From the IMG/VR virus record IMGVR_UViG_2851955134_000006, positions 1 to 12,320 of that record: 12,320 nucleotides of DNA; one strand, 5' to 3'. The notes below the pieces were generated by a model. It was not told the origin of the DNA and did no database searches. It saw only the letters and a list, made by a program, of their open reading frames with translations. Positions 1-12,320 of this stretch are shown here, in pieces. Position numbers and translations under genes: made by a program. Position 1 is the stretch's first letter. The number at the start of each line of letters is the position of its first letter. This DNA is from a virus. Taxonomy: Duplodnaviria; Heunggongvirae; Uroviricota; Caudoviricetes.

Positions 1-1230
1 ATGAGCAGAGCACTTAACAAACTGAGCGATACACAGCTAAGGAAAATCAACGGCACACCCGCCCAAAAAACAGTCTTTCTTAATGACGGTGGAAACCTGA
101 CCGTCAGGCATTCAACCAGCGGCCTTTTAACCTGGTATTTCACCTACAGGGCCGGAACGGGAAGGGGAGCACGACCGGAACGGATTAAGCTGGGAAATTA
201 TCCTGATCTGAGCCTGAAAGCAGCCAGGGAAAAAGCCGCACAGTGCCGCGCATGGCTGGCTGAGGGGAAAAATCCACGTCATGAGATGAATTACACCGTA
301 CAGGAAGCGTTAAAGCCTGTAACGGTTGGCGATGCGCTCACCTACTGGCTTGAGTCGTACGCAAAGGAAAACCGTGTGGATTATGACCCACTGAAAAAGC
401 GGCTAAATAATCACGTAATACAGCACATTGGCGCTATGCCGCTGGATAAATGCGAGCTACGGCACTGGCTGGCCTGTTTTGATCGGGTGGCAAAGCAAGC
501 CCCTGTTTCCGCCGGATTCCTGCTACAGACATGCAAACAGGCGCTTAAGTTCTGCCGGAAGCGGCGCTATGCAATCAGCAACGTTCTTGATGATATGAGT
601 GTTGCTGACGTTGGGAAAAAACCGGATATAAGTCAGCGTGTCTTAAGTAACAAAGAACTTGGCGAATTATTGCAGGCACTGGACAAAAAAATATTTTCCC
701 CTTACTACGTCGCACTAATCCGCCTCCTGATTGTCTTCGGAGCCAGGACAGTAGAACTGAGGCTATCGGAGATCGGGGAGTGGGATTTTACCGAAATGCT
801 CTGGACCGTTCCGAAGGAGCACAGCAAAACGAAGGTAGCCATATTCCGGCCCATACCGGAAGCGATACTGCCGTTCGTCACGCAGCTGGTGGAGCAGAAC
901 AGGCACACGGGCTTATTGCTGGGGGAAGTGAAACAGGAGGCCAGCGTATCGCAGTATGGAAGATTAGCGCACAGGAGGCTTAAACACCCTCACTGGTCAC
1001 TGCATGACATCCGGCGCACCTTTACAACGATGCTGAACGATTTAGGCGTGGATCCTCACGTCGTGGAGCAGCTTACAGGCCACCAGATGCCAGGAATGCA
1101 GCGAGTTTATAATCATTCCCGTTATCTGGATGCGAAACGCAATGCGCTGGATATGTGGGTGGAGCGGTTGGAGATACTGGCGGGAGCACATGAAAACGTA
1201 ACCACGCTACCAGTAGCCAGAAGAAAATAA
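1..1230 (+). CDS. int: Site-specific tyrosine integrase, P4-like family
   Basis: 409-aa ORF. N-terminal arm-binding-like region (LSDTQLRK...LNDGGNLTVRH...WYFTYR), C-terminal catalytic region with R..HxxR..Y-type signature (LHDIRRTFTT...GHQMPGMQRVYNHSRY). ATG sits at base 1, so the true start could lie upstream of the window. Confidence 0.9.
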   Translation: MSRALNKLSDTQLRKINGTPAQKTVFLNDGGNLTVRHSTSGLLTWYFTYRAGTGRGARPERIKLGNYPDLSLKAAREKAAQCRAWLAEGKNPRHEMNYTVQEALKPVTVGDALTYWLESYAKENRVDYDPLKKRLNNHVIQHIGAMPLDKCELRHWLACFDRVAKQAPVSAGFLLQTCKQALKFCRKRRYAISNVLDDMSVADVGKKPDISQRVLSNKELGELLQALDKKIFSPYYVALIRLLIVFGARTVELRLSEIGEWDFTEMLWTVPKEHSKTKVAIFRPIPEAILPFVTQLVEQNRHTGLLLGEVKQEASVSQYGRLAHRRLKHPHWSLHDIRRTFTTMLNDLGVDPHVVEQLTGHQMPGMQRVYNHSRYLDAKRNALDMWVERLEILAGAHENVTTLPVARRK

Positions 1231-1604
1231 TTTTTTTCGTGTTTTTTCAGTATGCGCATACTGGATAAGTGCACAGATACAACGGCGAACAATGTGAAAC
1301 AACGTGGAACAACCACGAACAAGAGGCCGAAAAATATACAGATTTATAAGTTGCTGATTTTTAATGCTCAACTGGTTTTTTATACATTAGCGAATAACGC
1401 TTTAAATAGTGAGAAAAAAGGCATGAAACGAGATTTTATGCCTTTGCATAATACTGAATTAAAATGTTTTTTATTAAAATTACCCCGTTTCTGTAAAATA
1501 CCCGCCACCAACATTTGCCAACTCTGAATCACCCTGACACAATCAGACACATACCAACGCAATAGAACACGAAATAACTCTTTAAGAAACGAAAGGGGGC
1601 AATA

Positions 1605-1793
1605 GTGTTAAGCACTGATCGCTTTATACGTGAAAAAGAATGCGAAAAGCTAACAGGCCTTAGCCGCTCATGCCGCTACCGCCTGGAAAAGGCCGGACAA
1701 TTCCCATCACGGCGTAAGCTGGGCGGTCGTTCCGTTGGCTGGTCTTTATCCGAAGTTCTGGCATGGAAGGAAAGCTGCGAGGCAGTTCACTAA
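1605..1793 (+). CDS. alpA: AlpA-family (prophage CP4-57 regulatory protein-like) HTH transcriptional regulator / excisionase-like protein
   Basis: 62-aa ORF with GTG start and SD-like aaggggg 6 nt upstream. Sequence pattern TGLSRS..YRL...GQFP...LGGRSVGW..SEV..W is typical of AlpA/Xis-like MerR-type HTH proteins, and its position directly after int is typical of P4-like islands and Gram-negative PICIs. Confidence 0.8.
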   Translation: MLSTDRFIREKECEKLTGLSRSCRYRLEKAGQFPSRRKLGGRSVGWSLSEVLAWKESCEAVH

Positions 1794-1934
1794 AAAGACT
1801 GGCGGCACACAGCCGCCACCCATCCACTAATACAGAGATTTAACCATGAAGACTGGATATACGCCCGAACAGGGGCGGGGCTTCGTTCGGCCTTGTGAAA
1901 CTGAAAAACAACAAAATCGCGGTTTTTCAGACAT

Positions 1935-1962
1935 AAAAAAAGCGGCCCCGATAAGGAGCCGC
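1935..1962 (-). terminator. Putative rho-independent terminator for the minus-strand two-gene module, possibly bidirectional
   Basis: Stem gcggcccc / ggagccgc (8 bp, one mismatch) with loop gataa, preceded on the plus strand by an A7 run, which reads as a T7 tract after the stem on the minus strand; lies about 160 bp downstream of the minus-strand ORF ending at 2121. Confidence 0.45.
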
Positions 1963-2120
1963 CTTTCTGAACAATTAACCTACTGCGCAAAAAATGAATA
2001 TGAGCAGTGGGATTATATCAACCGTGTGGCGAAGCGCCACAATTGCCGGATAACGGGCAAAGAAAAGGCCACCTGTCACGGTGGCCAATGTGATCAGTGT
2101 CCTGGCTTGCTGGTGGATTG

Positions 2121-2312
2121 TCAGCCAGGTGGGCGGTTTTTGTTTGCTTTTAAGCGCCGAGGGTATTTCTCGACAAAAGGATCAAGGGCGAACTTATCAG
2201 GAACTTTAAGATTTTCAGTGCGGGTTAATGCCTTATTTATTTCCCTGCGGGTTTTCTCACGCTGGCGCATGATAATTGATAATGCTTTATTTTGTAGTTC
2301 CTGGTTATTCAT
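2121..2312 (-). CDS. Hypothetical small basic protein (63 aa)
   Basis: ATG at 2312-2310 on the minus strand with SD aaggtga 7 nt upstream; the ORF track extends it to a GTG at 2321. Lys/Arg-rich (MNNQELQNKALSIIMRQREKTRREINKALTRTENLK...). Sits downstream of the RHH gene on the same strand. No recognisable family. Confidence 0.4.
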   Translation of the reverse strand: MNNQELQNKALSIIMRQREKTRREINKALTRTENLKVPDKFALDPFVEKYPRRLKANKNRPPG

Positions 2313-2369
2313 AATTATCACCTTTAAAACAATGCGCCGCAGTACCTCACACCACGGCGCTGATAGTAA

Positions 2370-2549
2370 TTATTCTGATTCTTTGGCCTTGCGGCGCTGG
2401 CGGCGTTTGATCTCGCCTTTTGCGGCAGTAACTAAAAAACCAGCGGTACTTTCGCCAGGTTCTTTAAGTTGCTCAATATCATCCATTACTTCATGTGGGA
2501 TTCTGACAGTTGTCATTTGTGATTTTGCGTTCTTTGCACCAGTTGCCAT
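2370..2549 (-). CDS. Ribbon-helix-helix (CopG/Arc/MetJ-like) DNA-binding protein, candidate repressor
   Basis: 59-aa ORF starting MATGAKNAKSQMTTVRIPHEVMDDIEQL, an RHH-like N-terminal beta-strand motif (TVRIP.E....IE.L). Strong SD aggaga 7 nt upstream of the ATG on the minus strand. The ORF track's 118-aa version begins at an upstream ATG with no RBS. Confidence 0.6.
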   Translation of the reverse strand: MATGAKNAKSQMTTVRIPHEVMDDIEQLKEPGESTAGFLVTAAKGEIKRRQRRKAKESE

Positions 2550-2610
2550 TTCTGGATCTCCTAAAAATTGGTGTATGTCAGTATACGCAAAAAAAATGAT
2601 AAAAAAAGGC

Positions 2611-2661
2611 TTGAAGTGTATTTCACCAGTGAGTAAATTAAAAAGCAAAGGTGAAATACAC
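2611..2661 (+). promoter_or_regulatory. Divergent control region: candidate rightward sigma70 promoter (TTGAAG -N17- TAAATT) overlapped by a perfect 12-bp inverted repeat operator
   Basis: gtgtatttcacc at 2616-2627 and its exact reverse complement ggtgaaatacac at 2650-2661, separated by 22 bp. The left arm lies in the promoter spacer and the right arm just downstream of the -10. Located between the minus-strand RHH gene and the plus-strand early operon. Confidence 0.45.
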
Positions 2662-2742
2662 CTGAAAGAGCAACGCCCCGCAGTGCTCGCAACACATGCA
2701 GGGCGTCTAACCACCAACGATAGCAAGAGTATCGAGGTAGCT

Positions 2743-2946
2743 ATGAGAAATCATACCACACACCCGCAAGGGCGGGACTCGCACAACCTGAATAAATACA
2801 TCTGGCGTTTTATCGCCCTGAGCACGGCACAACCGCGCGTAATTCACATCGAGGCCACCAGCGAACAGGAAGCACGTCAGCAATCTCCTGATGGCTGCGT
2901 GATGGTATTCGCCGCCCGTATTCGTCAGGAGGTGTGCCATGATTAA
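2743..2946 (+). CDS. Hypothetical protein (67 aa), first gene of the early operon
   Basis: ATG at 2743 with SD gaggt 5 nt upstream. The stop overlaps the next gene's start (ATG 2939, TAA 2944-2946), implying translational coupling. It is the C-terminal part of the long open frame 1846..2946, which is otherwise judged non-coding. Confidence 0.5.
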   Translation: MRNHTTHPQGRDSHNLNKYIWRFIALSTAQPRVIHIEATSEQEARQQSPDGCVMVFAARIRQEVCHD

Positions 2947-3307
2947 CCTGTCACTTACCGATCTTAACCGCGTTCAGTTTCGTGAGAAATTTACCGGACA
3001 GCTACTCGTCAATGTGGAGAACGGGCGCATAGTGCGTAATTATCACCTGCCGGATGGTGCAATTGCCGGAAGCGTTGAAGCATTGCTTGAACTGGCGGAA
3101 CGTGCGCGACTGATTAAGCCGTCAACGAACCATCACGATGATGATCTGCATTTTACCGGATGTATGGTGAGTCACTACGAAAACGGCGTCGAGGTATCCT
3201 GCGAACAGCTACGCACTGATTGCTGTTTTGGCACTCTGCCGGAATTTATCGAATTGCTGACCAGTTGCGGATATCAGGTTATTCAGGGGGTGCGCCATGT
3301 GCAATAA
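2939..3307 (+). CDS. Hypothetical protein (122 aa)
   Basis: Strong SD aggaggtg 4 nt upstream of the ATG; coupled to flanking genes. No recognisable family. Confidence 0.6.
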   Translation: MINLSLTDLNRVQFREKFTGQLLVNVENGRIVRNYHLPDGAIAGSVEALLELAERARLIKPSTNHHDDDLHFTGCMVSHYENGVEVSCEQLRTDCCFGTLPEFIELLTSCGYQVIQGVRHVQ

Positions 3308-3749
3308 CATCCGTCCGGACGCAGCCGCCGCCGCACTCACTACTCTGATGCACGCGCTTATTGATATTTCTGTTATTGCAGACATGGCGCATAAGCACGC
3401 CACCAGAGAGACGGAATATACAGGGGAAATAATCCCCCATTCGCTGGCCTACGCACAGCTTACCGCTGATATGGCACTGAATGAAGCCAAAGCCATCCTG
3501 ATTGCTGATTGTGAAAATGGGGGGGTTATGCGTGATGATCGTTTTAATGCCCTGAAACAGGAATTTTCCGGCGTTCCTGATAATGCGGCTGATGCGCTTT
3601 CGTCAATGCCAGAGCTTATTAGAGCGGCTTTTTTCTTACTTTCCACGAGAGAATATAAATCAACGGGGCTTGATGTACTGAATATCGCCGCCGATTATGC
3701 TGATTTCGTGACAGAGGTTATTTTAAGAAAAACGACGGACGGGGATTAA
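3297..3749 (+). CDS. Hypothetical protein (150 aa)
   Basis: ATG overlaps the upstream gene's end, with SD caggggg upstream. Protein-like composition. No recognisable family. Confidence 0.6.
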   Translation: MCNNIRPDAAAAALTTLMHALIDISVIADMAHKHATRETEYTGEIIPHSLAYAQLTADMALNEAKAILIADCENGGVMRDDRFNALKQEFSGVPDNAADALSSMPELIRAAFFLLSTREYKSTGLDVLNIAADYADFVTEVILRKTTDGD

Positions 3750-3750
3750 T

Positions 3751-3984
3751 ATGCGTGATATTTACCTAGAAACAATAGACCGCGCATTTAGTGCCATTGT
3801 TTACGCTGAAGGTATGTACGAAATATTGCAAATGTATCTGGATACATTTGGCGATAATGAGCGTGATGTAAAGAATGCGCGGATTATTAAATCTCTGATA
3901 ACTCTCCTTGAACCTGTAATAACAGAGTTGCAGGAAATAGACCTATTGCACGACAGATATAAAGAACAGCACACCGGAGAATAA
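3751..3984 (+). CDS. Hypothetical protein (77 aa)
   Basis: Starts 2 nt after the upstream stop, with SD gacgggga upstream. No recognisable family. Confidence 0.55.
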   Translation: MRDIYLETIDRAFSAIVYAEGMYEILQMYLDTFGDNERDVKNARIIKSLITLLEPVITELQEIDLLHDRYKEQHTGE

Positions 3985-3989
3985 AAATA

Positions 3990-4289
3990 ATGAAACTTAA
4001 ATATTCTGGCTTTACTGCCAGCGGCCCCGCTCGGCCTGAAATCCGCCCCGGCGATATTTTCAAAGATAACTACGGCGGCACGGTAACAATTAAAAGCGTG
4101 GAGGAACGTCGCGTAACTTACCGCCGTGATGGCTACGAATATGACTGCGTGATGCCTGTTTATCAGTTCCGGCGTGATTTTTCTCTGGTACAGAACGCAA
4201 CACGCGGTAAGCCCACCAGCAGGGAAAAAGCACGGGAAAATATTAAGAAAATAAAAAGCATGCTCAGCGCATCCAGAGGTAAAAAATGA
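3990..4289 (+). CDS. Hypothetical protein (99 aa), basic C-terminus
   Basis: SD ccggaga upstream; its stop overlaps the start of the replicase gene (ATGA at 4286-4289). Confidence 0.55.
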   Translation: MKLKYSGFTASGPARPEIRPGDIFKDNYGGTVTIKSVEERRVTYRRDGYEYDCVMPVYQFRRDFSLVQNATRGKPTSREKARENIKKIKSMLSASRGKK

Positions 4290-5692
4290 AACTGGCACCG
4301 AACGTAAAACTGTTACCGAAAGATAAACACACTGAGGCGGTTATTTTTGCGGGTGATAATGCTCACTCCTTTGCAGAACATTACATGATTGCACAGGCCA
4401 AAAAAGCAGGCGATCCCATCCCTCCGGTTTACCTGGGCCGTTATCAGTTAAGCGAACTGGACAACTTACAGATTGTTGATGAAGGACGATACAGGGCAAA
4501 GGTCATACGCGCCGGAAACCTGGACGATATGCAGATGCTGACCATTGCCACCAAACTGGCGATCGCAGGTGTCCAGGAAGCACGGTTACTTTCAGAGAAT
4601 TTCGAACTGCTGGAGGACTGGAGCGAGCAACTACCGCGGCTTAAAGAAACCTGGGAACGCGGGGAAAGTCTGGTCATGAATGGTGGAAAGCGAAAAATCA
4701 CACTTCCCATCTCATGGGGTTCTGAGGGATTCGACGCGCAGCAAAGCTACGTAATTAAGGGGCTTATTCCGGCTGAGTCATTATGCAGCACCTACGGGGC
4801 CAGCGGTTCTTATAAATCGTTCCTGGCTATTTCCTGGTCGTGCCATGTTGCCACAGGTATGGCATGGGGAGGCCGCAGGGTAAGTAAGGGCGCTGTTATC
4901 TATATCGCTGGCGAAGGCAGTATGGGCGTAAAACGCCGCGTTAAGGCGTGGGAGATAACCCATGACAAGGTGGTTACAGATTTGTGCATCATTAACGCGC
5001 CGGTATTCCCCGCATCGCCTGACTATGTGGAGCAGGTTATCAGGACTGCCGGACTTGTTAAGAGCAGAACGGGCGAAAATGTGCCGCTGATTGTGATCGA
5101 CACGCTGGCCCGTTGCTTTGGTGGGAATGATGAAAATGATTCCCGTGATATGGGCGCATTTATCCAGGGGTGTGACGCGATAAAGCAGGCTACAGGGGCC
5201 ACGGTGCTGGTGGTTCACCATTCCGGCAAGGATGAAACAAAGGGGGCGCGTGGTTCCAGCGCATTCCGTGCCGCGCTTGATGCAGAGTACCGAATCAGCC
5301 GGGAAAATTCAGACGTTACAGCACTGGTGGCGGCGTGTACGAAGATGAAGGACGCAGAGGAGCCAAAAGAAAGCGCATACGACCTTAAAAGCGTGGAGGT
5401 GTTCACCGATACAGATGGCGAAGAAATTGTGTCTATGGTGGTGATTGACGTTCCCCGCGCCCCTGCTGAACTGGAGCGCATCGAGGAAGCAGGCAACAAA
5501 TCGGAGAATCACGCCGCGCTATGGCAGTGCATCAGAACGCGGACGGCACACAAAGAGCCATGCACTATCGCCCTTCTCCGCGACGATATGAAAAAGCTGG
5601 GGTATGAGATGAAGCACTTCCGGCGCTGGCTGTCCAAGCTGGAAAAAGACGGCGTGATTTGTGTCGATGGGGATGATGTTTACCCACTGTAA
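4286..5692 (+). CDS. Replication initiator ATPase / helicase, RecA-like P-loop NTPase (RepA/AAA_25-like), satellite replicase
   Basis: 468-aa ORF with a P-loop-like segment (LIPAESLCSTYGASGSYKSFLAISW), a Walker B-like hhhhD segment (PLIVIDTLARCFG) and a VVHHSGKDETKG segment typical of RepA/DnaB-type ATPases. Immediately followed by an iteron array. Confidence 0.8.
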   Translation: MKLAPNVKLLPKDKHTEAVIFAGDNAHSFAEHYMIAQAKKAGDPIPPVYLGRYQLSELDNLQIVDEGRYRAKVIRAGNLDDMQMLTIATKLAIAGVQEARLLSENFELLEDWSEQLPRLKETWERGESLVMNGGKRKITLPISWGSEGFDAQQSYVIKGLIPAESLCSTYGASGSYKSFLAISWSCHVATGMAWGGRRVSKGAVIYIAGEGSMGVKRRVKAWEITHDKVVTDLCIINAPVFPASPDYVEQVIRTAGLVKSRTGENVPLIVIDTLARCFGGNDENDSRDMGAFIQGCDAIKQATGATVLVVHHSGKDETKGARGSSAFRAALDAEYRISRENSDVTALVAACTKMKDAEEPKESAYDLKSVEVFTDTDGEEIVSMVVIDVPRAPAELERIEEAGNKSENHAALWQCIRTRTAHKEPCTIALLRDDMKKLGYEMKHFRRWLSKLEKDGVICVDGDDVYPL

Positions 5693-5895
5693 AAAGTGGG
5701 TAGTAAAAGTGGGGAGAGTGGGGAATTTAACAAAATTGAAACATAATTCCCCACTTTCCCACCTGTATACATCCAAAAAAGTGGGGAGCAAAAAACGCAA
5801 TGAAAAACAAAGCATTAGATTCACTCAAAAAACGAAGTGGGGAGCAAGTGGGGAATTTAAAAAGTGGGGAGCAAAAGTGGGGAGTGGTGGGGAAT
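5693..5895. repeat. Iteron array, putative origin of replication of the element
   Basis: At least eight direct copies plus one inverted copy of the core AGTGGGGA, in two flavours (AGTGGGGAGCA and AGTGGGGAATTT), at roughly 5708, 5717, 5780, 5836, 5847, 5863 and 5876, with a variant at 5695 and the inverted copy at 5746-5757. AT-rich spacers. Sits directly downstream of the replicase gene. Confidence 0.7.
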
Positions 5896-5938
5896 GAATA
5901 AAAACCGAACAGCAGGACAAAATACAGAAGGTGAATTT

Positions 5939-6262
5939 ATGAACACTGAAATTGAAACACTGAGCATATCAACTGCCCTTCCTGGCTGGTGGGCTAAGTT
6001 CAAAGACGACGACGGCACGGAATGGTATAGCCCAATTGCTGCATGGGCGCTTTGTGAGATCCACCATTTCGGCACCGGAGATACTTACCGCGAAATCTTA
6101 CCCGTGCTGACCAGTGAGGTGGGCGTGAGTCCGCATAGTCCTGATGAGGGAATGTTCGAGTGCCTTTATCTGCCAGATAAGAAGTTTGTTCACTGCGGTG
6201 AGTCATGGGTATTTGCCTGGTATCCGGTTAACGACAGCAGCAATAGCGGTACTCTGGAGTAA
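5939..6262 (+). CDS. Hypothetical protein (107 aa; alternative start at ATG 5894 gives 122 aa)
   Basis: SD aggtga 4 nt upstream of ATG 5939. The longer ORF-track version starts inside the iteron array and is less likely. Confidence 0.5.
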   Translation: MNTEIETLSISTALPGWWAKFKDDDGTEWYSPIAAWALCEIHHFGTGDTYREILPVLTSEVGVSPHSPDEGMFECLYLPDKKFVHCGESWVFAWYPVNDSSNSGTLE

Positions 6263-6265
6263 ATC

Positions 6266-6508
6266 ATGAAGGTAAACCACAAAAAGACAGATCACCGCGC
6301 CATTGACCTTACAGAGCACTGGCTGAGGGTGGCGATAAAAATCATCGACCGCAACGCGGGAGAAGGATACGCGAAGGAACATCCCGAACTGATTAGCGCA
6401 TTCATGACAACGGCAGCTGCAAACTTTTCCACGCTGACAGAACGGGAGATTGCCGAAGCGCAACAGGTGACAACCATCAACGTTAAAACCAGTGAGGTGG
6501 AATCATGA
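6266..6508 (+). CDS. Hypothetical protein (80 aa)
   Basis: SD ggag 6 nt upstream; its stop overlaps the SSB start (ATGA). Confidence 0.5.
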   Translation: MKVNHKKTDHRAIDLTEHWLRVAIKIIDRNAGEGYAKEHPELISAFMTTAAANFSTLTEREIAEAQQVTTINVKTSEVES

Positions 6509-6915
6509 CAGCACAGATAGCGGCTTACGGGCGGCTGGTGGCTGACCCACAGTTAAAGACCACCAGCAAGGGTACACAAATGGCGATGGCGAGTATGGCT
6601 GTCCCCCTGCCGTGCAGCCAGGCAGATGACGGAACGGCGACGATGTGGTTATCCGTCCTGGCGTTTGGCAGACAGGCCGACGCACTGGCAAAACACCAGA
6701 AAGGCGAACTGGTGAGCGTGGCGGGTAACATGCAGGTGAGCCAGTGGACCGGACAGAACGGGGAAACGCGGCAGGGCTGGCAGGTTATCGCAGACAGCGT
6801 AATCAGTGCGCGGACAGTGCGACCGGGCGGAAAAACACGCAAAACCACAGGCACACAGGGTAATCAGCCACCAGCGGGAGACGATGACCCTTACGGTGAT
6901 GATATTCCGTTCTGA
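6505..6915 (+). CDS. ssb: Single-stranded DNA-binding protein (short, phage/plasmid-type SSB)
   Basis: 136-aa ORF with an OB-fold-like N-terminal region, a Gly/Gln/Pro-rich linker and the hallmark acidic SSB C-terminal tail DDDPYGDDIPF. SD gaggtgg upstream. Confidence 0.8.
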   Translation: MTAQIAAYGRLVADPQLKTTSKGTQMAMASMAVPLPCSQADDGTATMWLSVLAFGRQADALAKHQKGELVSVAGNMQVSQWTGQNGETRQGWQVIADSVISARTVRPGGKTRKTTGTQGNQPPAGDDDPYGDDIPF

Positions 6916-6925
6916 GGGGGTGACG

Positions 6926-7198
6926 ATGGTACATGACCGGATAGCGGAGGAACTGGAGGCGAAAGGATTTTACCGGAGGGCGGCCGCGCGATGGGGTGAA
7001 GTTATGTGGCTGGTGAGCACTGACAAGGAGCGCGAACAGGTGGCAATGCGACGGCTGGAATGTTCCCGGAAGGCACAGAGGCCACCGGAGCCACCGGATG
7101 ATTTAGGCGCTCTGAAAAGGTCAGTTAATCGCACTGAAAAACAAATGGGGATAGCTGGTATTGGCAAAGCAATATGGCGCAACTACCCGCAGAAGTGA
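6926..7198 (+). CDS. PerC-family transcriptional regulator-like protein (90 aa)
   Basis: ATG at 6926 with SD gaggggg upstream. The N-terminal segment MVHDRIAEELEAKGFYRRAAARWGEVMWL matches the PerC/Pch-family pattern (LE.KG.YRRAA.RW) as recalled from memory. The ORF track's longer version overlaps ssb and lacks an RBS. Confidence 0.5.
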   Translation: MVHDRIAEELEAKGFYRRAAARWGEVMWLVSTDKEREQVAMRRLECSRKAQRPPEPPDDLGALKRSVNRTEKQMGIAGIGKAIWRNYPQK

Positions 7199-7205
7199 GC
7201 ACACA

Positions 7206-7227
7206 GCCGGAGCAATCCGGCTTTTTT
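7206..7227 (+). terminator. Rho-independent terminator ending the replication/regulation operon
   Basis: Stem gccgga / tccggc, loop gcaa, then TTTTTT; 8 nt after the PerC-like stop codon. Confidence 0.6.
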
Positions 7228-7233
7228 ACGCCT

Positions 7234-7275
7234 AAAAAAAGCCCGATAAGGTCACAGGGGGCTTATCGGGCTTTT
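7234..7275. terminator. Second hairpin, likely a bidirectional terminator
   Basis: A7 run, then 10-bp perfect stem gcccgataag / cttatcgggc with an 11-nt loop, then tttt; it gives a T7 tract when read on the minus strand. Confidence 0.5.
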
Positions 7276-7354
7276 GCATATGAGGTTTTTTTTGGTGCAC
7301 TGACACACATGAACGGGATAATCATTTCATAATTTGCAACACAACTCAACATCA

Positions 7355-7403
7355 TTGCACAAAATGCAATCATGATTATAATCAGAGCTGGATGAACATC
7401 CAG
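7355..7403 (+). promoter_or_regulatory. Putative sigma70 promoter of the head operon with overlapping dyad symmetries
   Basis: TTGCAC at 7355-7360, a 16-nt spacer, then a consensus TATAAT at 7377-7382. The -10 is embedded in the perfect 12-bp palindrome tgattataatca (7373-7384), and an inverted repeat ctggatg-aa-catccag (7388-7403) sits at the predicted transcription start. Confidence 0.5.
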
Positions 7404-7438
7404 TTATGATTTTTTAAGTCAAAGAGGAATTTCTGACT

Positions 7439-7645
7439 ATGGCAGAAGAGAAAAAAGGCGGGGTGACGGTCTACATAAGCCCCGACATCGTGGAGGCGCT
7501 CAAGGAACGCCACCAGCAGAATGTAAAAGCAGGCATTGCGGCAGGACTTGATCCGCTGGCGATGGTTGAGCCGTCAACAGGCTGGCAGGTGCGCACCTAT
7601 TTACGTGCGGCGCTGGGTATCAATCAGGTTCACGGAGGTGAATAA
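7439..7645 (+). CDS. Hypothetical protein (68 aa), first gene of the head module
   Basis: SD aagaggaa upstream; its stop overlaps the capsid gene start (TAATG). Confidence 0.5.
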   Translation: MAEEKKGGVTVYISPDIVEALKERHQQNVKAGIAAGLDPLAMVEPSTGWQVRTYLRAALGINQVHGGE

Positions 7646-8700
7646 TGACAGGCAAAGCAACGGCACTTACAACTAACCAGCTTTTCGCGTACCTGAATCG
7701 CGGGGATATTGCGGATTTTAAATTCAGCCCTCTGTTTACCACGCTGTTTTTCCCGAACGTGGCGACCTTCAACACCCAAAACATCATGCTGGACACCCTG
7801 GACATTGAAGAGGTTACGATGTCAGCGTTCTGTTCGCCTATGGTGGGTAGTCAGGTCCAGCGCGATAAAGGGTACGAAACCAGCACGATTAAACCCGGCT
7901 ACATGAAGCCAAAGCACGAAATCGATCCAACAAAGACCATCATGCGCATGGCTGGAGAAGATCCGGCACAGCTTAACGATCCAACTTACCGCCGTATGCG
8001 CCTGATTACTGGCAACATGCGCCGCCAGATAAACGCCATTAAGGCGCGCGTGGAATGGCTGGCGGTGAATGCGGTAACGACCGGAAAAAACATCATTGAG
8101 GGCGAAGGCATAGAACGCTATGAAATCGACTGGAAAATACCGGAAAACTGCATCATACAGCAGGCCAGTGGTAAAAAATGGTCCCAGCAGGATAAAGACA
8201 TGCACGACCCAATCTATGACATCGAGCTTTATGCTGATCAGGCAGGTTGCCCCGCCAACGTCATGATTATGGGCGGTGAGGTATGGCGCACATTACGCAG
8301 CTTTAAAAAATTCCGTGAACTGTACGATCTTTCCCGTGGGTCAGAATCCGCCGCCGAGCTGGCCTGTAAAAACCTGGGCGAAGTGGTGAGCTTTAAAGGC
8401 TATCTTGGTGATCTGGCCCTTATCGTCTATTCCGGCAAATACACTGACAGCGACGGCACCGAAAAATATTTCCTTGAGCCTGATTTGCTGGTCCTGGGTA
8501 ACACCAACAATAAAGGGCTGGTGGCCTATGGTGCGATTATGGATCAGGAAGCGGTAAGAACGGGCGCAACGCAAAACATGTACTACCCGAAAAACTGGAT
8601 TGAGGACGGCGATCCGGCGATTGAGTACGTGCAGACGCACAGCGCACCGCAGCCGGTACCGGCAGATATTCGCAAATTTGTTACCGTCAAAATTGCTTAA
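7645..8700 (+). CDS. Major capsid protein, lambda gpE family
   Basis: 351-aa ORF with SD ggaggtg upstream. Blocks of similarity to lambda gpE as recalled from memory: DFKFSPLF..LFF near the N-terminus, PGYMKPKHEIDP (lambda PGYVKPKHEVNP), DPTYRRMRLITGNMR (lambda DPAYRRRRIIMQNMR), and C-terminal YPKNWIEDGDPA...SAP...FVTVKIA (lambda YPKNWVTTGDPA...SAP...FVSVQLA). Confidence 0.9.
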   Translation: MTGKATALTTNQLFAYLNRGDIADFKFSPLFTTLFFPNVATFNTQNIMLDTLDIEEVTMSAFCSPMVGSQVQRDKGYETSTIKPGYMKPKHEIDPTKTIMRMAGEDPAQLNDPTYRRMRLITGNMRRQINAIKARVEWLAVNAVTTGKNIIEGEGIERYEIDWKIPENCIIQQASGKKWSQQDKDMHDPIYDIELYADQAGCPANVMIMGGEVWRTLRSFKKFRELYDLSRGSESAAELACKNLGEVVSFKGYLGDLALIVYSGKYTDSDGTEKYFLEPDLLVLGNTNNKGLVAYGAIMDQEAVRTGATQNMYYPKNWIEDGDPAIEYVQTHSAPQPVPADIRKFVTVKIA

Positions 8701-8711
8701 CGGGGGATTCT

Positions 8712-9047
8712 ATGGACGCTCCATACATTGAGTTATTTTCAGGCAGCCAGCAGGTATCCACGACGCTGGTACATTTTGCCGCTGATGCTGGCGTTATTCA
8801 GGAATTTACCCCTCTGATGCTGGCAGACAATGGCGAGTTTAAGGCGTGGGATGGTCAGGAATCTGGCAAAGCTGTTTATCTGACTTCGCACCCCGTGGAC
8901 ACGTCAAAGCAGAAATCAGCACAGTGTTACAAAACGGGGATATTCAATATTGCCGCCGTTAACTGGCCTGATAGCGTCGACACCGATGCGAAAAAATGCG
9001 CCGCCTTTGCGGGTTCCGGCGTATCCGTTCAGCCGCTGGCCCGATAA
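8712..9047 (+). CDS. Head decoration protein, lambda gpD family
   Basis: 111-aa ORF with SD cggggga upstream. Similarity to lambda gpD as recalled from memory: TPLMLADNGEFKAWDG (lambda TPLMLDTSSRKLVAWDG), YKTGIF (lambda YKSGTF), and C-terminal KKCAAFAGSGVSV (lambda KKRTAFAGTAISIV). Confidence 0.8.
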   Translation: MDAPYIELFSGSQQVSTTLVHFAADAGVIQEFTPLMLADNGEFKAWDGQESGKAVYLTSHPVDTSKQKSAQCYKTGIFNIAAVNWPDSVDTDAKKCAAFAGSGVSVQPLAR

Positions 9048-9059
9048 GCAGGGGGAACG

Positions 9060-9473
9060 ATGGCAACGAATGAAAGTATCATGACGCTACCGCTGGCGAG
9101 TAAATTTAAAGCCGAAGCGCGGGCAATGGCTGACAGAGGTTTATCAACCTACGAGGCCATACACCGACTAAACAAACTGGAAGAACAGGACAAGCCGCGC
9201 GCTGATGCGATTATGGCGCTTCATGAATCTGACGACTACCAGCCGCTGTTACGTGCAATGGCTAACGTGCCTTGTATCGATGTTGGTACGGCTAAAAGCA
9301 TCCTTAGCATGACCATAGAGCAGGAACGCCCGAAGGTTGCACCAGAGCTTACTTCAGCCTTTGAAAACTTTATGGACATGCACAGCCCGAAAGCCGTATC
9401 AGCTGGCATGGCATACGATGGCAGAACCCCGGGCGATGACGGCGACATCGATCGCATACTGAAAACCATCTGA
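9060..9473 (+). CDS. Hypothetical protein (137 aa), last gene of the head module
   Basis: SD agggggaa upstream; followed 7 nt later by a terminator. No recognisable family. Confidence 0.55.
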   Translation: MATNESIMTLPLASKFKAEARAMADRGLSTYEAIHRLNKLEEQDKPRADAIMALHESDDYQPLLRAMANVPCIDVGTAKSILSMTIEQERPKVAPELTSAFENFMDMHSPKAVSAGMAYDGRTPGDDGDIDRILKTI

Positions 9474-9479
9474 GACAAG

Positions 9480-9502
9480 GCCGGAGAAATCCGGCTTTTT
9501 TT
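9480..9502 (+). terminator. Rho-independent terminator ending the head operon
   Basis: Stem gccgga / tccggc, loop gaaa, then TTTTTTT. Nearly identical to the terminator at 7206-7227. Confidence 0.65.
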
Positions 9503-9507
9503 GCGGG

Positions 9508-9575
9508 TCCTTTCCGGCATGTGGACCCGTTACGGGGCGTCGACCTCGCGCGTTTTCGCTATTTATGACGTTTTT
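9508..9575 (+). other. Lambda-like cohesive-end site (cos-1: cosQ-like flank, cosN, start of cosB)
   Basis: CGTTACGGGGCGTCGACCTCGCGCGTTTTCGCTATTTATGACGTTTTTCCG closely matches the lambda cos region as recalled (…GGGCGGCGACCTCGCGGGTTTTCGCTATTTATGAAAATTTTCCGG…). The predicted 12-nt cohesive end GGGCGTCGACCT (9535-9546) differs from lambda GGGCGGCGACCT at one position. Located about 90 bp upstream of a Nu1-like gene on the same strand. Confidence 0.75.
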
Positions 9576-9635
9576 CCGTGAAGGTGACACCACCACCACT
9601 TGATTAACATTTAATCGCATGATTAAGGTAACATT

Positions 9636-10076
9636 ATGATTGATAAAGCTTGTTTTGTGAGTCAGCAGGAAATAGCAGAACATTTCAAGGTCAACAGAAC
9701 CACTATTCGCGCATGGACCAAACAGGGCATGCCATATCTTGATGCGGATCGCGGAAAGTCCGGCGGTTATCACATCGGACACACATTATTCTGGTGCATG
9801 GGTAAAAGCCATCTTGATGCTATTGAGTACCACGGAGAAACCAGCGCACTGGAAAAGATTATGGTTGCCAGGTTGATTGCGTCAGAGCGCGACGAGTATT
9901 TCAGTGAAGAAACAGAACAGCGATTTGATGAAGGTTTGCATATTTACGGCTATTCACCGGAAGATGTGAGCAAGGCACGAAATAAAATGGCTGGCTTTCT
10001 GGCTGGGTGGCGTCATGCCGTAAGCGTTCGCCGTGCCAGCATGGAACAATCAGTCGTTACAGAACAGCAAAGTTAA
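9636..10076 (+). CDS. Nu1-like terminase small subunit homolog (N-terminal winged HTH); candidate packaging-redirection (Rpp-like) protein
   Basis: 146-aa ORF. N-terminus FVSQQEIAEHFKVNRTTIRAWTKQGMPYLDADRGKSGG resembles lambda Nu1 (QLADIFGASIRTIQNWQEQGMPVLRGGGKG, recalled from memory). The C-terminal region is shorter and unrelated to the Nu1 gpA-binding region. No large terminase gene follows. Confidence 0.7.
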   Translation: MIDKACFVSQQEIAEHFKVNRTTIRAWTKQGMPYLDADRGKSGGYHIGHTLFWCMGKSHLDAIEYHGETSALEKIMVARLIASERDEYFSEETEQRFDEGLHIYGYSPEDVSKARNKMAGFLAGWRHAVSVRRASMEQSVVTEQQS

Positions 10077-10079
10077 AAA

Positions 10080-10260
10080 TCACTTTCTGTTACGCCATCA
10101 AATACGCAATACAACAACCACGTATTTTTTTAAAACTATTTGATTCAATTAGCATTTTTTTATTTTTAGCATCAAAAAAACACTATCAGGTTGTTGTATT
10201 GCTCTTTATTTTTACTTAGTTATCAAATGGATATGACAAACAATTAAACAACAACCTCCC
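10080..10260. repeat. AT-rich region with a 14-bp perfect inverted repeat and short direct repeats
   Basis: gcaatacaacaacc at 10106-10119 and its reverse complement ggttgttgtattgc at 10189-10202 (69 bp apart), a third partial copy aacaacaacc at 10247-10256, and direct repeats of ttagcat in a T-rich context between the arms. Confidence 0.45.
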
Positions 10261-10272
10261 TCTAAAAAAGCT

Positions 10273-10345
10273 CATAAATAGCGAAAAACCGCGAGGTCGA
10301 CGCCCCGTAACGGGCCATAATTCCAGGAAGGACCCGACGACACCA
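10273..10345 (-). other. Second lambda-like cos site (cos-2), inverted relative to cos-1
   Basis: The reverse complement of 10273-10345 reads ggtgtcgtcgggtccttcctggaattatggCCCGTTACGGGGCGTCGACCTCGCGgtttttcgctatttatga. A 25-bp core is identical to cos-1, with flanking similarity on both sides (gggtcctttccgg versus gggtccttcctgg; cgttttcgctatttatga versus gtttttcgctatttatga). Cohesive-end equivalent at 10294-10305. Confidence 0.7.
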
Positions 10346-10369
10346 GACTATCAGAGCGATGGGCGCACA

Positions 10370-10651
10370 ATGACAGAAGCCGAACTACTGGGATTAATCC
10401 GCCGCGTTACCGGAATCAGCCAGCAGCATGACGAACAGGCCACGCAGCCGGACAGCGTGACCGCCGAAAATTACGCGTGTGTTGTTGCTGAGGTGATGCG
10501 CCGTGATGGTATTGAGCTTAACGGCGTGGATATGCGCAACATACGAACCAGAGTCCTTGAGTTGCTGGCATACCGTCGCCGTTCTCAACAACGGAGGGAG
10601 AGCGCGAAAAATACTTACCAGTGGAAGAAGCCGGAACGACTGCGTACGTAA
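10370..10651 (+). CDS. Hypothetical protein (93 aa)
   Basis: ORF with a weak SD; followed about 70 bp later by a plus-strand hairpin with a T tract. Arg-rich C-terminus. No recognisable family. Confidence 0.4.
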   Translation: MTEAELLGLIRRVTGISQQHDEQATQPDSVTAENYACVVAEVMRRDGIELNGVDMRNIRTRVLELLAYRRRSQQRRESAKNTYQWKKPERLRT

Positions 10652-10721
10652 TACGTACGGACATCGAGATAAAGACGGTTTAACCATCCATTAAAAATCG
10701 ACGTGATTTTGTGCTTTCCGG

Positions 10722-10745
10722 ATGACGTGGCCAACGTCATTTTTT
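10722..10745 (+). terminator. Putative rho-independent terminator
   Basis: Stem atgacgt / acgtcat, loop ggcca, followed by ttttt. Confidence 0.5.
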
Positions 10746-10967
10746 AGCGAAAAATTCTGATTAAGGTCATTGGCTGAATGGTCATAATGACCACTCCTAC
10801 AGAACAGGTAAAGCCCACCAGCCTGATTAAAGGTTAACCGGAAAAAAAGCCAGGTATCAATCTCGATATGTGGATCCCCATATCGACAGCAACGCCCCCT
10901 TAAAATTACCCGCCTTTATATTTCTTGTGCCTATTTGTTCCACGTTGTTTCATACAGTGCACCGATC

Positions 10968-10991
10968 GGTGTAGTTAATGGTGTAGTTAAT
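10968..10991. repeat. Perfect tandem duplication of a 12-bp unit (ggtgtagttaat x2), preceded by the palindrome accgatcggt
   Basis: Read directly: 10968-10979 and 10980-10991 are identical; the palindrome is at 10961-10970. Confidence 0.6.
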
Positions 10992-11084
10992 TTGCGATTT
11001 TTGGCACTTTTTTTAGTGTAAGTTGTTTAATTAAATCAATACGTTATTGAAAATAAGTTATAGATATATCCCATTTATGACTCC

Positions 11085-12320
11085 TTATTTCTGCCAGGCA
11101 AGTTGATAAAGCATGAGTGCCAACGTTTTGACCCCTTCGGCAAGGTCGGTAATATTGGTGCGTTCCGCCGGGTTATGGCTGATCCCATTGATGCTGGGAA
11201 TGAAAATCATGCAGGTTGGTACGCGAGGCGCGAAAATTTGCGCGTCGTGCCCGGCACCACTGTGCATCACCCGGTAATTCAGTTTTTCGCTTTCACACAA
11301 TTCTGTCAGGGTGGCGACCAGGTCCTTATTCATCGGCACGGGTTCTTCGTCCATCCATAAATCGATATCAATACCAATGTCCATTTCATCGCAAATCGCC
11401 CGCATGTCGTTTTCTAACTGCTGAGTGAAATCGCGCAGCACGGCGGCGTCGGTATGACGACAATCAATGGTGAATGTGGTTTTACCCGGCACCACATTCA
11501 CCGTATTCGGGCGCGGCTCCACCTTACCAAAGGTCAGCACCAGCGGGTCGCCCATCTTTTTCGCTTTTTCGATCGACTGATGGCAAATGCGACTGAAAGC
11601 GTAAACTGTATCACGACGGTAACCCATCGGCGTGGTGCCTGCATGGTTTGATTCGCCGTTCAGCGTCACCGTATAGCGACGTTGCCCGACAATTGCATTC
11701 ACCACGCCAATTGATTGCCCATTACTTTCCAGCACACAGCCCTGTTCGATATGCAGTTCGACAAAGGCTTTAATATCCTGACGCGGAGTTAGCGGGGCGT
11801 CCGGCAGAGTAAATCCGCAAGCCTTCATCGCATCGACAAAACTATTTCCTTTGGCATCACAGATATTCCGCACGTCGTCAGGATTCGCCAGCCCAAAGAT
11901 ATTTTTACTGCCCCAGAAAACATACGGGAAGCGGCTGCCTTCTTCTTCCGCCATCGCCACCACTTCAACCGTACGTAACGGCGCGCCGTATTGCCTTTTC
12001 AACCAGTCAATTGCCAGCCACGCCGCCAGCGCGCCGAATTGCCCGTCGAGGTTACCGCCGTTAACCACGGTATCGATATGCGAACCGCTCAGAACCACTT
12101 CCTGTGGATATTCGGTGCCACTCAGGCGACCGTATAAATTCCCCACTTCATCGAAACGTGTTTCCAGCCCGCTTGCTGCCATTCTTTTTTTAAATTGCTG
12201 CTGGGTTTCCAGCCATTCCGGCGAATAAAGTAAACGGGTCATCCCACCCGTTGGGTCAGCGCCAAAAGAGGAAAGCCAGGGCAGCGTTTCTTCTATGGCT
12301 TGACGGAAATGTGTAATCAT
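11085..12320 (-). CDS. allC: Allantoate amidohydrolase (M20 peptidase / hydantoinase-carbamoylase family), host chromosomal gene
   Basis: Complete 411-aa ORF with ATG at 12320-12318. M20-type metal-binding motifs (SGSHIDTV, DGQFG, EEEGSRF, HNPAE). Full-length match to my recollection of enterobacterial AllC (MITHFRQAIEETLPWLSSFGADP...). Confidence 0.8.
   Translation of the reverse strand: MITHFRQAIEETLPWLSSFGADPTGGMTRLLYSPEWLETQQQFKKRMAASGLETRFDEVGNLYGRLSGTEYPQEVVLSGSHIDTVVNGGNLDGQFGALAAWLAIDWLKRQYGAPLRTVEVVAMAEEEGSRFPYVFWGSKNIFGLANPDDVRNICDAKGNSFVDAMKACGFTLPDAPLTPRQDIKAFVELHIEQGCVLESNGQSIGVVNAIVGQRRYTVTLNGESNHAGTTPMGYRRDTVYAFSRICHQSIEKAKKMGDPLVLTFGKVEPRPNTVNVVPGKTTFTIDCRHTDAAVLRDFTQQLENDMRAICDEMDIGIDIDLWMDEEPVPMNKDLVATLTELCESEKLNYRVMHSGAGHDAQIFAPRVPTCMIFIPSINGISHNPAERTNITDLAEGVKTLALMLYQLAWQK

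Follow-up and report, generated by a model that had tools for sequence, protein, structure and literature searches.

A putative Rpp gene of the RppA/RppB clade between the two inverted cos sites of an EcCICFT073-type PICI

Rpp proteins and the small-terminase-like gene

The closest described relatives of the gene reported here encode RppA, RppB and RppC, members of the Rpp (redirecting phage packaging) protein family, all three of which block phages lambda and phi80 (Fillol-Salom et al. 2019, PMC6739421). The same study documented the binding of Rpp to the small terminase subunit, TerS, by two-hybrid assay, pull-down and co-crystal, and located in TerS the mutations that escape Rpp. Transfer of the island needs RppA, and the cosB of cos1, recognised by RppA-TerS, is the RppA-dependent determinant. 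R21A/T22A mutations in RppA result in the loss of cos1-dependent packaging, L51D in the loss of TerS binding and F121R in the loss of dimerisation, which takes place via helix alpha6; RppA-RppC heterodimers are not formed (PMC6739421). For EcCICFT073, the island of RppA, deletions of c1499 and c1500 were tested for lambda interference, and only expression of c1503 was found to cut plaque formation; the capsids that carry the island are of phage size.

The same outcome, with helper packaging blocked and the satellite packaged, is reached by SaPI satellites, through Ppi and a SaPI TerS in pac SaPIs and through cos-site mimicry in SaPIbov5. The SaPI packaging proteins are unrelated to Rpp, a single protein that has both functions and depends on the helper TerS (PMC6739421).

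The gene analyzed here lies in a window of 12,320 nucleotides (the whole stretch of DNA considered, corresponding to positions 1 to 12,320 of the IMG/VR virus record IMGVR_UViG_2851955134_000006), whose features are listed in Table 1. We estimate at about 92% the probability that it encodes an Rpp of the RppA/RppB clade, carried by an EcCICFT073-type PICI and working by the mechanism of RppA; both the protein family and the island type are already known and characterised.

Membership in the family is documented by several comparisons. A search of PDB sequences retrieved "Redirecting phage packaging protein C (RppC)" (6hlk, E=1.7e-32, residues 2-125), and a profile of 16 homologues matched the same entry over its full length (residues 1-141, E=5e-43). 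Of the 144 residues of RppA (c1503, AAN79972.1, a 144-aa CDS at NC_004431.1 1387659-1388093, EcCICFT073 having been taken from the CFT073 chromosome), 128 are identical in an ungapped alignment (89%). For RppB the figure is 128 out of 146 (~88%), the RppB sequence having been OCR-read from the supplement, with single positions uncertain. The first-pass annotation, made from the sequence without database searches, had suggested that the protein might belong to the Rpp family, had left open an independent solution, and had proposed a comparison with both Rpp and Nu1. Rpp membership was confirmed by these matches, and direct comparison with RppA, RppB and RppC excludes the independent solution. 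The Rpp match is full-length; the Nu1 match is N-terminal and below threshold.

The residues of known function are conserved. In the recognition helix (residues 19-30) the window protein does not differ from RppA, and R21/T22 of helix alpha2, L51 and F121, essential in RppA, are all present; R21, T22, T23, R25, W27, K29 and F121 are invariant across the 16 homologues. RppC (PDB 6HLK; 6HN7 in complex with lambda TerS 1-98) belongs to the same family and has the helix order predicted for the window protein, which keeps the RppC DNA-contact residues R21, T22, R25 and K29; on the other hand, RppC is 153 aa long, is only ~40-50% identical, and shows little conservation in the alpha6 residues used for dimerisation. 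An AF2 model built on the 16-sequence alignment averaged 52 in pLDDT and lacked the beta-hairpin. Foldseek, run with this low-confidence model, ranked 6hlk and 6hn7_A first with a TM-score of ~0.34, a result reflecting mostly sequence signal rather than independent structural evidence.

Relative to RppA, the window protein features 16 substitutions, clustered at residues 52-67 and 77-95, and two additional C-terminal residues. Its length, 146 aa, is that of RppB (PMC6739421, Fig. S1C), and the sequence is a patchwork, with segments defined against the OCR-read RppB sequence: residues 1-10 and 128-140 are RppA-like and unlike RppB, while residues 36-95, which include helix alpha3, and the last residues (the VVTEQ tail) are RppB-like. 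This makes RppA and RppB the two ends of a recombining allele series, and not discrete types. Since several of the substitutions fall, in RppB-like form, within the TerS-contacting helix alpha3 (52-67), helper range and affinity may differ from those of RppA.

At the nucleotide level, 43 of 432 positions differ from rppA of CFT073, distributed as 8/8/27 over codon positions 1/2/3; this bias towards third positions indicates coding constraint, and hence a real gene. The rpp ATG, at bp 102 from the cos1 nick, is preceded at 8-11 nt by a Shine-Dalgarno-like AAGG. Exactly the same protein is present on 43 public contigs: on dozens of E. coli contigs its NCBI name is "hypothetical protein", and RefSeq labels the gene either "hypothetical" or "helix-turn-helix domain-containing". 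The gene can safely be renamed Rpp, and the element described as an EcCICFT073-type PICI at the allE/allC site.

Similarity to small terminases is limited to the N-terminus. PHROG 57, "terminase small subunit", matches residues 7-46 (E=5.3e-8), and Pfam Phage_Nu1 (PF07471) matches residues 8-37 with positions 3-32 of its 164 (E=0.038); the score, 14.1 bits against a cutoff of 30, falls short of a full-length Nu1-profile match. The lambda Nu1 DNA-binding domain 1j9i gave E=0.31 with the single sequence and 0.047 with the family profile, and lambda-type TerS DNA-binding domains align with residues 8-58 only (E 0.05-0.3). With a CFT073 prophage TerS of 182 aa, BLASTP aligned residues 8-43 (14/36 identities), and no alignment to this lambdoid TerS was found downstream of residue 43. 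The Nu1-like N-terminal HTH noticed in the first-pass annotation is therefore real, the resemblance being weak and restricted to the N-terminus; the annotation was also right in describing the protein as shorter than Nu1, by 35 residues with respect to the 182-aa lambdoid TerS, and its C-terminal part as unrelated.

In summary form, lambda gpNu1 and the lambdoid TerS (PF07471; PDB 1J9I) share with the window protein an N-terminal winged-HTH of ~50 residues, and their genes, like rpp, lie directly 3' of a cosQ-cosN-cosB array. In contrast, the window protein is devoid of the C-terminal half involved in oligomerisation or TerL binding: Rpp poisons and redirects TerS, instead of replacing it.

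Limits and gene content of the island

The window contains an island of ~11 kb between att repeats. The start codon of int coincides with the left end of the window, attL lying just beyond it, while the right end is marked by the attR core. The same 30-mer recurs 22 nt upstream of int in the island of LH50-c (L001 2567-2596), an island 99.4% identical to that of the window, or 96-97% identical apart from the replication module, and located between the core genes allE and allC. The att core includes an internal tandem duplication, GGTGTAGTTAAT x2. The island is inserted in the allantoin utilisation cluster, in the intergenic region between allE and allC, while EcCICFT073 is inserted beside phoQ.

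Pfam analysis of the ten main ORFs recognised an integrase, AlpA, DUF4222, AAA_25, SSB, PerC and the gpE-like capsid and gpD-like decoration proteins; neither a terminase nor a portal was among them. No TerL was found in the six frames of the window by tblastn with a gpA-type TerL from a CFT073 prophage (best E 0.85). The lack of a large terminase, claimed in the first-pass annotation, is borne out by both searches; a TerL gene just outside the window, which would have spoken against the proposed role, finds no room there, the island being delimited by the att repeats, in a window running from the integrase start codon to allC. In the genuine prophages L004, L005 and L010, unlike in the window, a TerL gene comes immediately after TerS.

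AlpA is a hallmark of Gram-negative PICIs, and the int, replication and PerC genes of the island count among the PICI hallmarks too. Along with alpA, the island features int, a replication module and att repeats, in the absence of lysis, tail and terminase genes, and its length fits the size of about 10-15 kb set for PICIs of the EcCICFT073 type. A whole block of genes is found in the same order in EcCICFT073: a 68-aa ORF, the gpE-like and gpD-like genes, a 137-aa ORF, cos1, rpp, the inverted cos2 and a 93-aa ORF, the latter without Pfam or NCBIfam match. The late module, 6968-10072, is 91.8% identical in the two islands, which share the cosB of cos1, the genes flanking rpp and the presence of two inverted cos sites; they differ in insertion site, in replication module and in the cosB of cos2, which is unrelated.

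Replication modules also differ between the window island (2605-6275) and the LH50-c island (L001 5222-8876), where a 582-aa primase-family protein is encoded. The island is mosaic, and its replication genes form a cassette that can be exchanged. Capsid-related genes occupy 7645-9473, where the gpE-like and gpD-like genes are followed by the conserved 137-aa ORF, named "head-tail connector" in some RefSeq records, and are not accompanied by portal, protease or scaffold genes. A 366-aa ORF (1846-2946, + strand) has no annotated counterpart, and is probably spurious: in LH50-c small genes are annotated on both strands (YlcI/YnfO-family, Icd-like).

Table 1. Features of the window (positions from the first nucleotide of the 12,320-nt stretch)
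Feature	Position	Strand	Basis or remarks
Tyrosine integrase	1-1230	+	Pfam Arm-DNA-bind_3 and Phage_integrase; 96% identical to LH50-c island int
AlpA-family regulator	1605-1793	+	Pfam Phage_AlpA E=5e-18
Replication protein (AAA_25/RepA-like, 468 aa)	4286-5692	+	Pfam AAA_25 E=2.5e-42
Lambda gpE-like major capsid homologue (= EcCICFT073 c1499)	7645-8700	+	Pfam Phage_cap_E E=2.5e-50; same position in CFT073
Lambda gpD-like head decoration homologue (= c1500)	8712-9047	+	Pfam HDPD E=2.2e-17
cosQ-like element of cos1, GGGTCCTTTCCGGCA	9505-9519	+	identical to EcCICFT073 cos1; conserved in lambdoid prophage cos regions
cosN of cos1, GGGCGTCGACCT	9535-9546	+	sequence read and alignment with CFT073 cos1
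Proposed Rpp-binding site "R3-PICI", AGGTGACACCACCACCAC	9582-9599	+	bp 48-65 from nick
rpp (redirecting phage packaging; RppA/RppB clade)	9636-10076	+	146 aa, ATG to TAA
cosB of cos2, three GGTTGTTGT boxes	10077-10293	-	boxes 10248-10256 (-), 10189-10197 (+), 10111-10119 (-)
cosN of cos2, same G6 to T variant, inverted with respect to cos1	10294-10305	-	
cosQ-like element of cos2	10320-10336	-	alignments
93-aa ORF	10370-10651	+	conserved 3' of cos2 (= CFT073 282-nt CDS)
attR core, 30-nt direct repeat CGATCGGTGTAGTTAATGGTGTAGTTAATT	10963-10992		right end of island
allC	11085-12320	-	beyond attR

The cos1 site, packaging and alternative roles of the protein

Two lambda-like cos sites flank rpp, arranged as a 72-nt inverted repeat (9504-9575 and 10265-10336) with 85% complementarity. 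The gene, described in the first-pass annotation as placed next to cos, has cos1 on its 5' side and the inverted cos2 on its 3' side. At cos1, lambda-like cosQ and cosN elements are combined with a non-phage cosB, beside rpp. Between cosQ and the rpp ATG, 123 of 134 positions are identical to the cos1 of EcCICFT073, and the segment from bp 18 to ~75 is completely identical, including the R3-PICI sequence, at the position proposed by Murialdo and Feiss (PMC9026076).

In the cosN, the lambda and EcCICFT073 sequence, GGGCGGCGACCT, is changed from G to T at position 6 in both window copies. The variant, which makes a SalI site, is absent from lambda, phi80 and EcCICFT073, but is found in at least four lambdoid prophage contigs (L003-L006) of different TerS types, as well as in the LH50-c prophage; L003-L006 are genuine lambdoid prophage contigs, with TerS and TerL downstream. 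Since lambda does not have the variant, a phage other than lambda may be the natural helper, and the cosN of the window island probably matches that of local helpers, as published for EcCICFT073, which matches its phage 4. The presence of the same change in two inverted copies suggests either that they evolve in concert or that both track local helpers.

From the experiments on RppA, RppB and RppC (PMC6739421), and given the 89% identity with RppA, we infer that the window Rpp would bind helper TerS and interfere with the helper. Upon induction of a lambdoid helper, Rpp would form homodimers via its C-terminal helices, and its N-terminal winged-HTH, mimicking the TerS DNA-binding domain, would pair with the helper TerS. 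The resulting mixed Rpp-TerS DNA-binding unit would no longer read the phage cosB, leading to phage interference, and would bind instead the island cosB just 5' of rpp (cos1, ~9582-9599). TerS would still recruit the helper TerL, resulting in nicking at the lambda-like cosN (9535-9546) and in the packaging of the island into phage capsids. These protein-protein and protein-DNA contacts are predicted for the window protein because it is so close to the experimentally dissected RppA.

Other roles were considered, which all together account for under 10%. The protein could be a genuine island TerS, in the style of pac-type SaPIs, able to bind the island cos and to recruit the helper TerL without helper TerS. 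Its TerS-like winged-HTH, matched by PHROG 57, and the location of the gene directly 3' of cos, like Nu1 in lambda, would be compatible with such self-sufficiency, which we nevertheless consider improbable: nothing in the protein resembles the C-terminal region with which Nu1 binds TerL, the alignment ending at residue 43 of a protein too short by 35 residues with respect to the lambdoid TerS, and transfer of the RppA island strictly needs the helper TerS, being abolished by TerS escape mutants (PMC6739421, PMC6092414). A somewhat smaller probability is assigned to a decaying or inactive mosaic allele, which pairs with no helper any more. The patchwork of RppA-like and RppB-like segments may be taken in this sense, as may the existence of related contigs where rpp is mostly gone (L008), but the frame is intact and full-length, its substitutions are biased to third positions, all tested functional residues are kept in a sequence found unchanged on 43 contigs, and each of the parental types, RppA and RppB, works against lambda as well as phi80.

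The least probable role is that of a MerR/BldC/excisionase-like HTH factor, acting in transcription or recombination and not in packaging. The RppC DNA-binding domain is indeed structurally MerR-like (PMC6739421), and weak matches were obtained with HTH_17 (E=0.009), MerR_1 (E=0.014) and BldC (E=0.0037); these cover, however, ~25 residues and are below threshold (15.9 vs 21.6 bits for MerR_1, 17.1 vs 77 for BldC), while the full-length match is to Rpp, with 89% identity to RppA, for a gene located between two cos sites in an island already provided with AlpA and PerC regulators. An Rpp of the RppA/RppB clade thus remains by far the preferred assignment, and no feature of the sequence speaks against it.

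As to the expression of rpp, no sigma-70-like promoter was detected by consensus scan on the + strand between the cos1/hairpin region and the gene, and transcription may depend either on read-through from the capsid genes or on a PerC/AlpA-dependent promoter. The hairpin, GCCGGA-GAAA-TCCGGC followed by T7, is located at 9480-9506, after the 137-aa ORF and before the cosQ of cos1; it looks like an intrinsic terminator, and is absent from the list produced by the consensus scan.

The second cos site

The only element that might add to known biology is cos2, located outside the gene itself (9636-10076). In the 2018 and 2019 papers (the latter being PMC6739421) no phage cosB was recognisable, and the question of why two cos sites are present was left open; cos2 is not mentioned in the Murialdo-Feiss review (PMC9026076).

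The cosB of cos2 is complete and of phage type, with three GGTTGTTGT boxes against 0.15 expected by chance. Counted from the nick on the cos2 strand, they occupy bp 50-58, 109-117 (inverted) and 187-195. The cosB of L004, a lambdoid prophage contig with holin, lysozyme, Rz and bor genes upstream, and TerS and TerL downstream, has the same boxes in the same orientations (bp 51, 110 and 188). The L004 TerS, 46% identical to N15 gp1, starts at bp 229, and the rpp stop in the island abuts exactly at this position. Over 224 columns the two cosB sequences are 78.6% identical, while shuffled sequences reach 52% on average and 56% at most (the loci compared were 10077-10336 on the - strand of the window, L004 12860-13120, L010 2461-2735, L002 3100-3345 and L005 1690-1960).

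The segment 10077-10293 has no counterpart in EcCICFT073, though its flanks do: only the cosB2 segment has been swapped between the two islands. In EcCICFT073, the cosB of cos2 is ~95% identical, over ~150 nt, to the cosB of prophage L005, and contains CCGGACATG boxes. The cos2 cassettes thus appear to differ between islands, being of L004/LH50-c type in the window and of L005 type in EcCICFT073. CFT073 prophage 4, the strain's own helper, was considered as a source of the latter and rejected, its cosB being 21-like, in agreement with the published statement.

Prophages of the L004 type occur in 220 of 5426 complete E. coli genomes, including LH50-c, the carrier of the near-identical island. 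In INPHARED, none of the phage records can be aligned with the window cos2 cosB past ~bp 60 from the nick, and the only sources of matching phages were IMG/VR prophage contigs and complete E. coli genomes. Co-residence of the island with the prophage resembled by its cos2 shows no clear enrichment: a second cosB2-matching place occurs in only three of 34 genomes with a window-type cosB2, when the base rate is roughly 4-5%. This neither significantly supports nor refutes copying from a resident helper, since helpers can also arrive by infection.

On these grounds, we tentatively put forward, at slightly less than even odds, a two-key module, in which cos1 and Rpp would serve with helpers having lambda-, phi80- or 21-type TerS, while cos2 would be an exchangeable copy of the entire cosB of a different lambdoid prophage lineage, with an N15-like DNA-binding domain in its TerS, whose terminase, unmodified, would be able to package the island with no need of Rpp. 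The inversion of cos2 would prevent premature termination by terminase having begun at cos1. Such an arrangement resembles the SaPIbov5 strategy of carrying the helper's cos, and a precedent is provided by PICI 11capE, where a 258-bp cos region matches that of its helper prophage at 90% (PMC10111431). If confirmed by experiment, this interpretation of cos2 would explain the two-cos architecture and widen the predicted helper range, with a bearing on the spread of island-borne traits and on the engineering of PICI-based delivery vehicles. Derivation of Rpp from the L004 TerS lineage was also considered and dropped, no similarity being detectable between the Rpp DNA-binding domain and the L004 TerS.

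The TerS proteins of L004 (13117-13623) and L005 (1954-2463) are near-identical in their C-terminal half, from about ...LLxARxELTxEQAV..., and have unrelated N-terminal DNA-binding domains. Each being associated with its own cosB box, they show plainly, in a natural setting, how packaging specificity can be exchanged as a module.

Two further IMG/VR contigs, L008 (1-1300) and L007 (1700-4614), contain the island late genes, with a 99% identical capsid gene and the 137-aa ORF, followed by a cos with an L005-type cosB. After cos, only the last 22 codons of rpp are kept in L008, while phage TerS and TerL genes are found in L007. These contigs are either island-prophage recombinants, formed at the shared cosQ-cosN, or chimeric assemblies.
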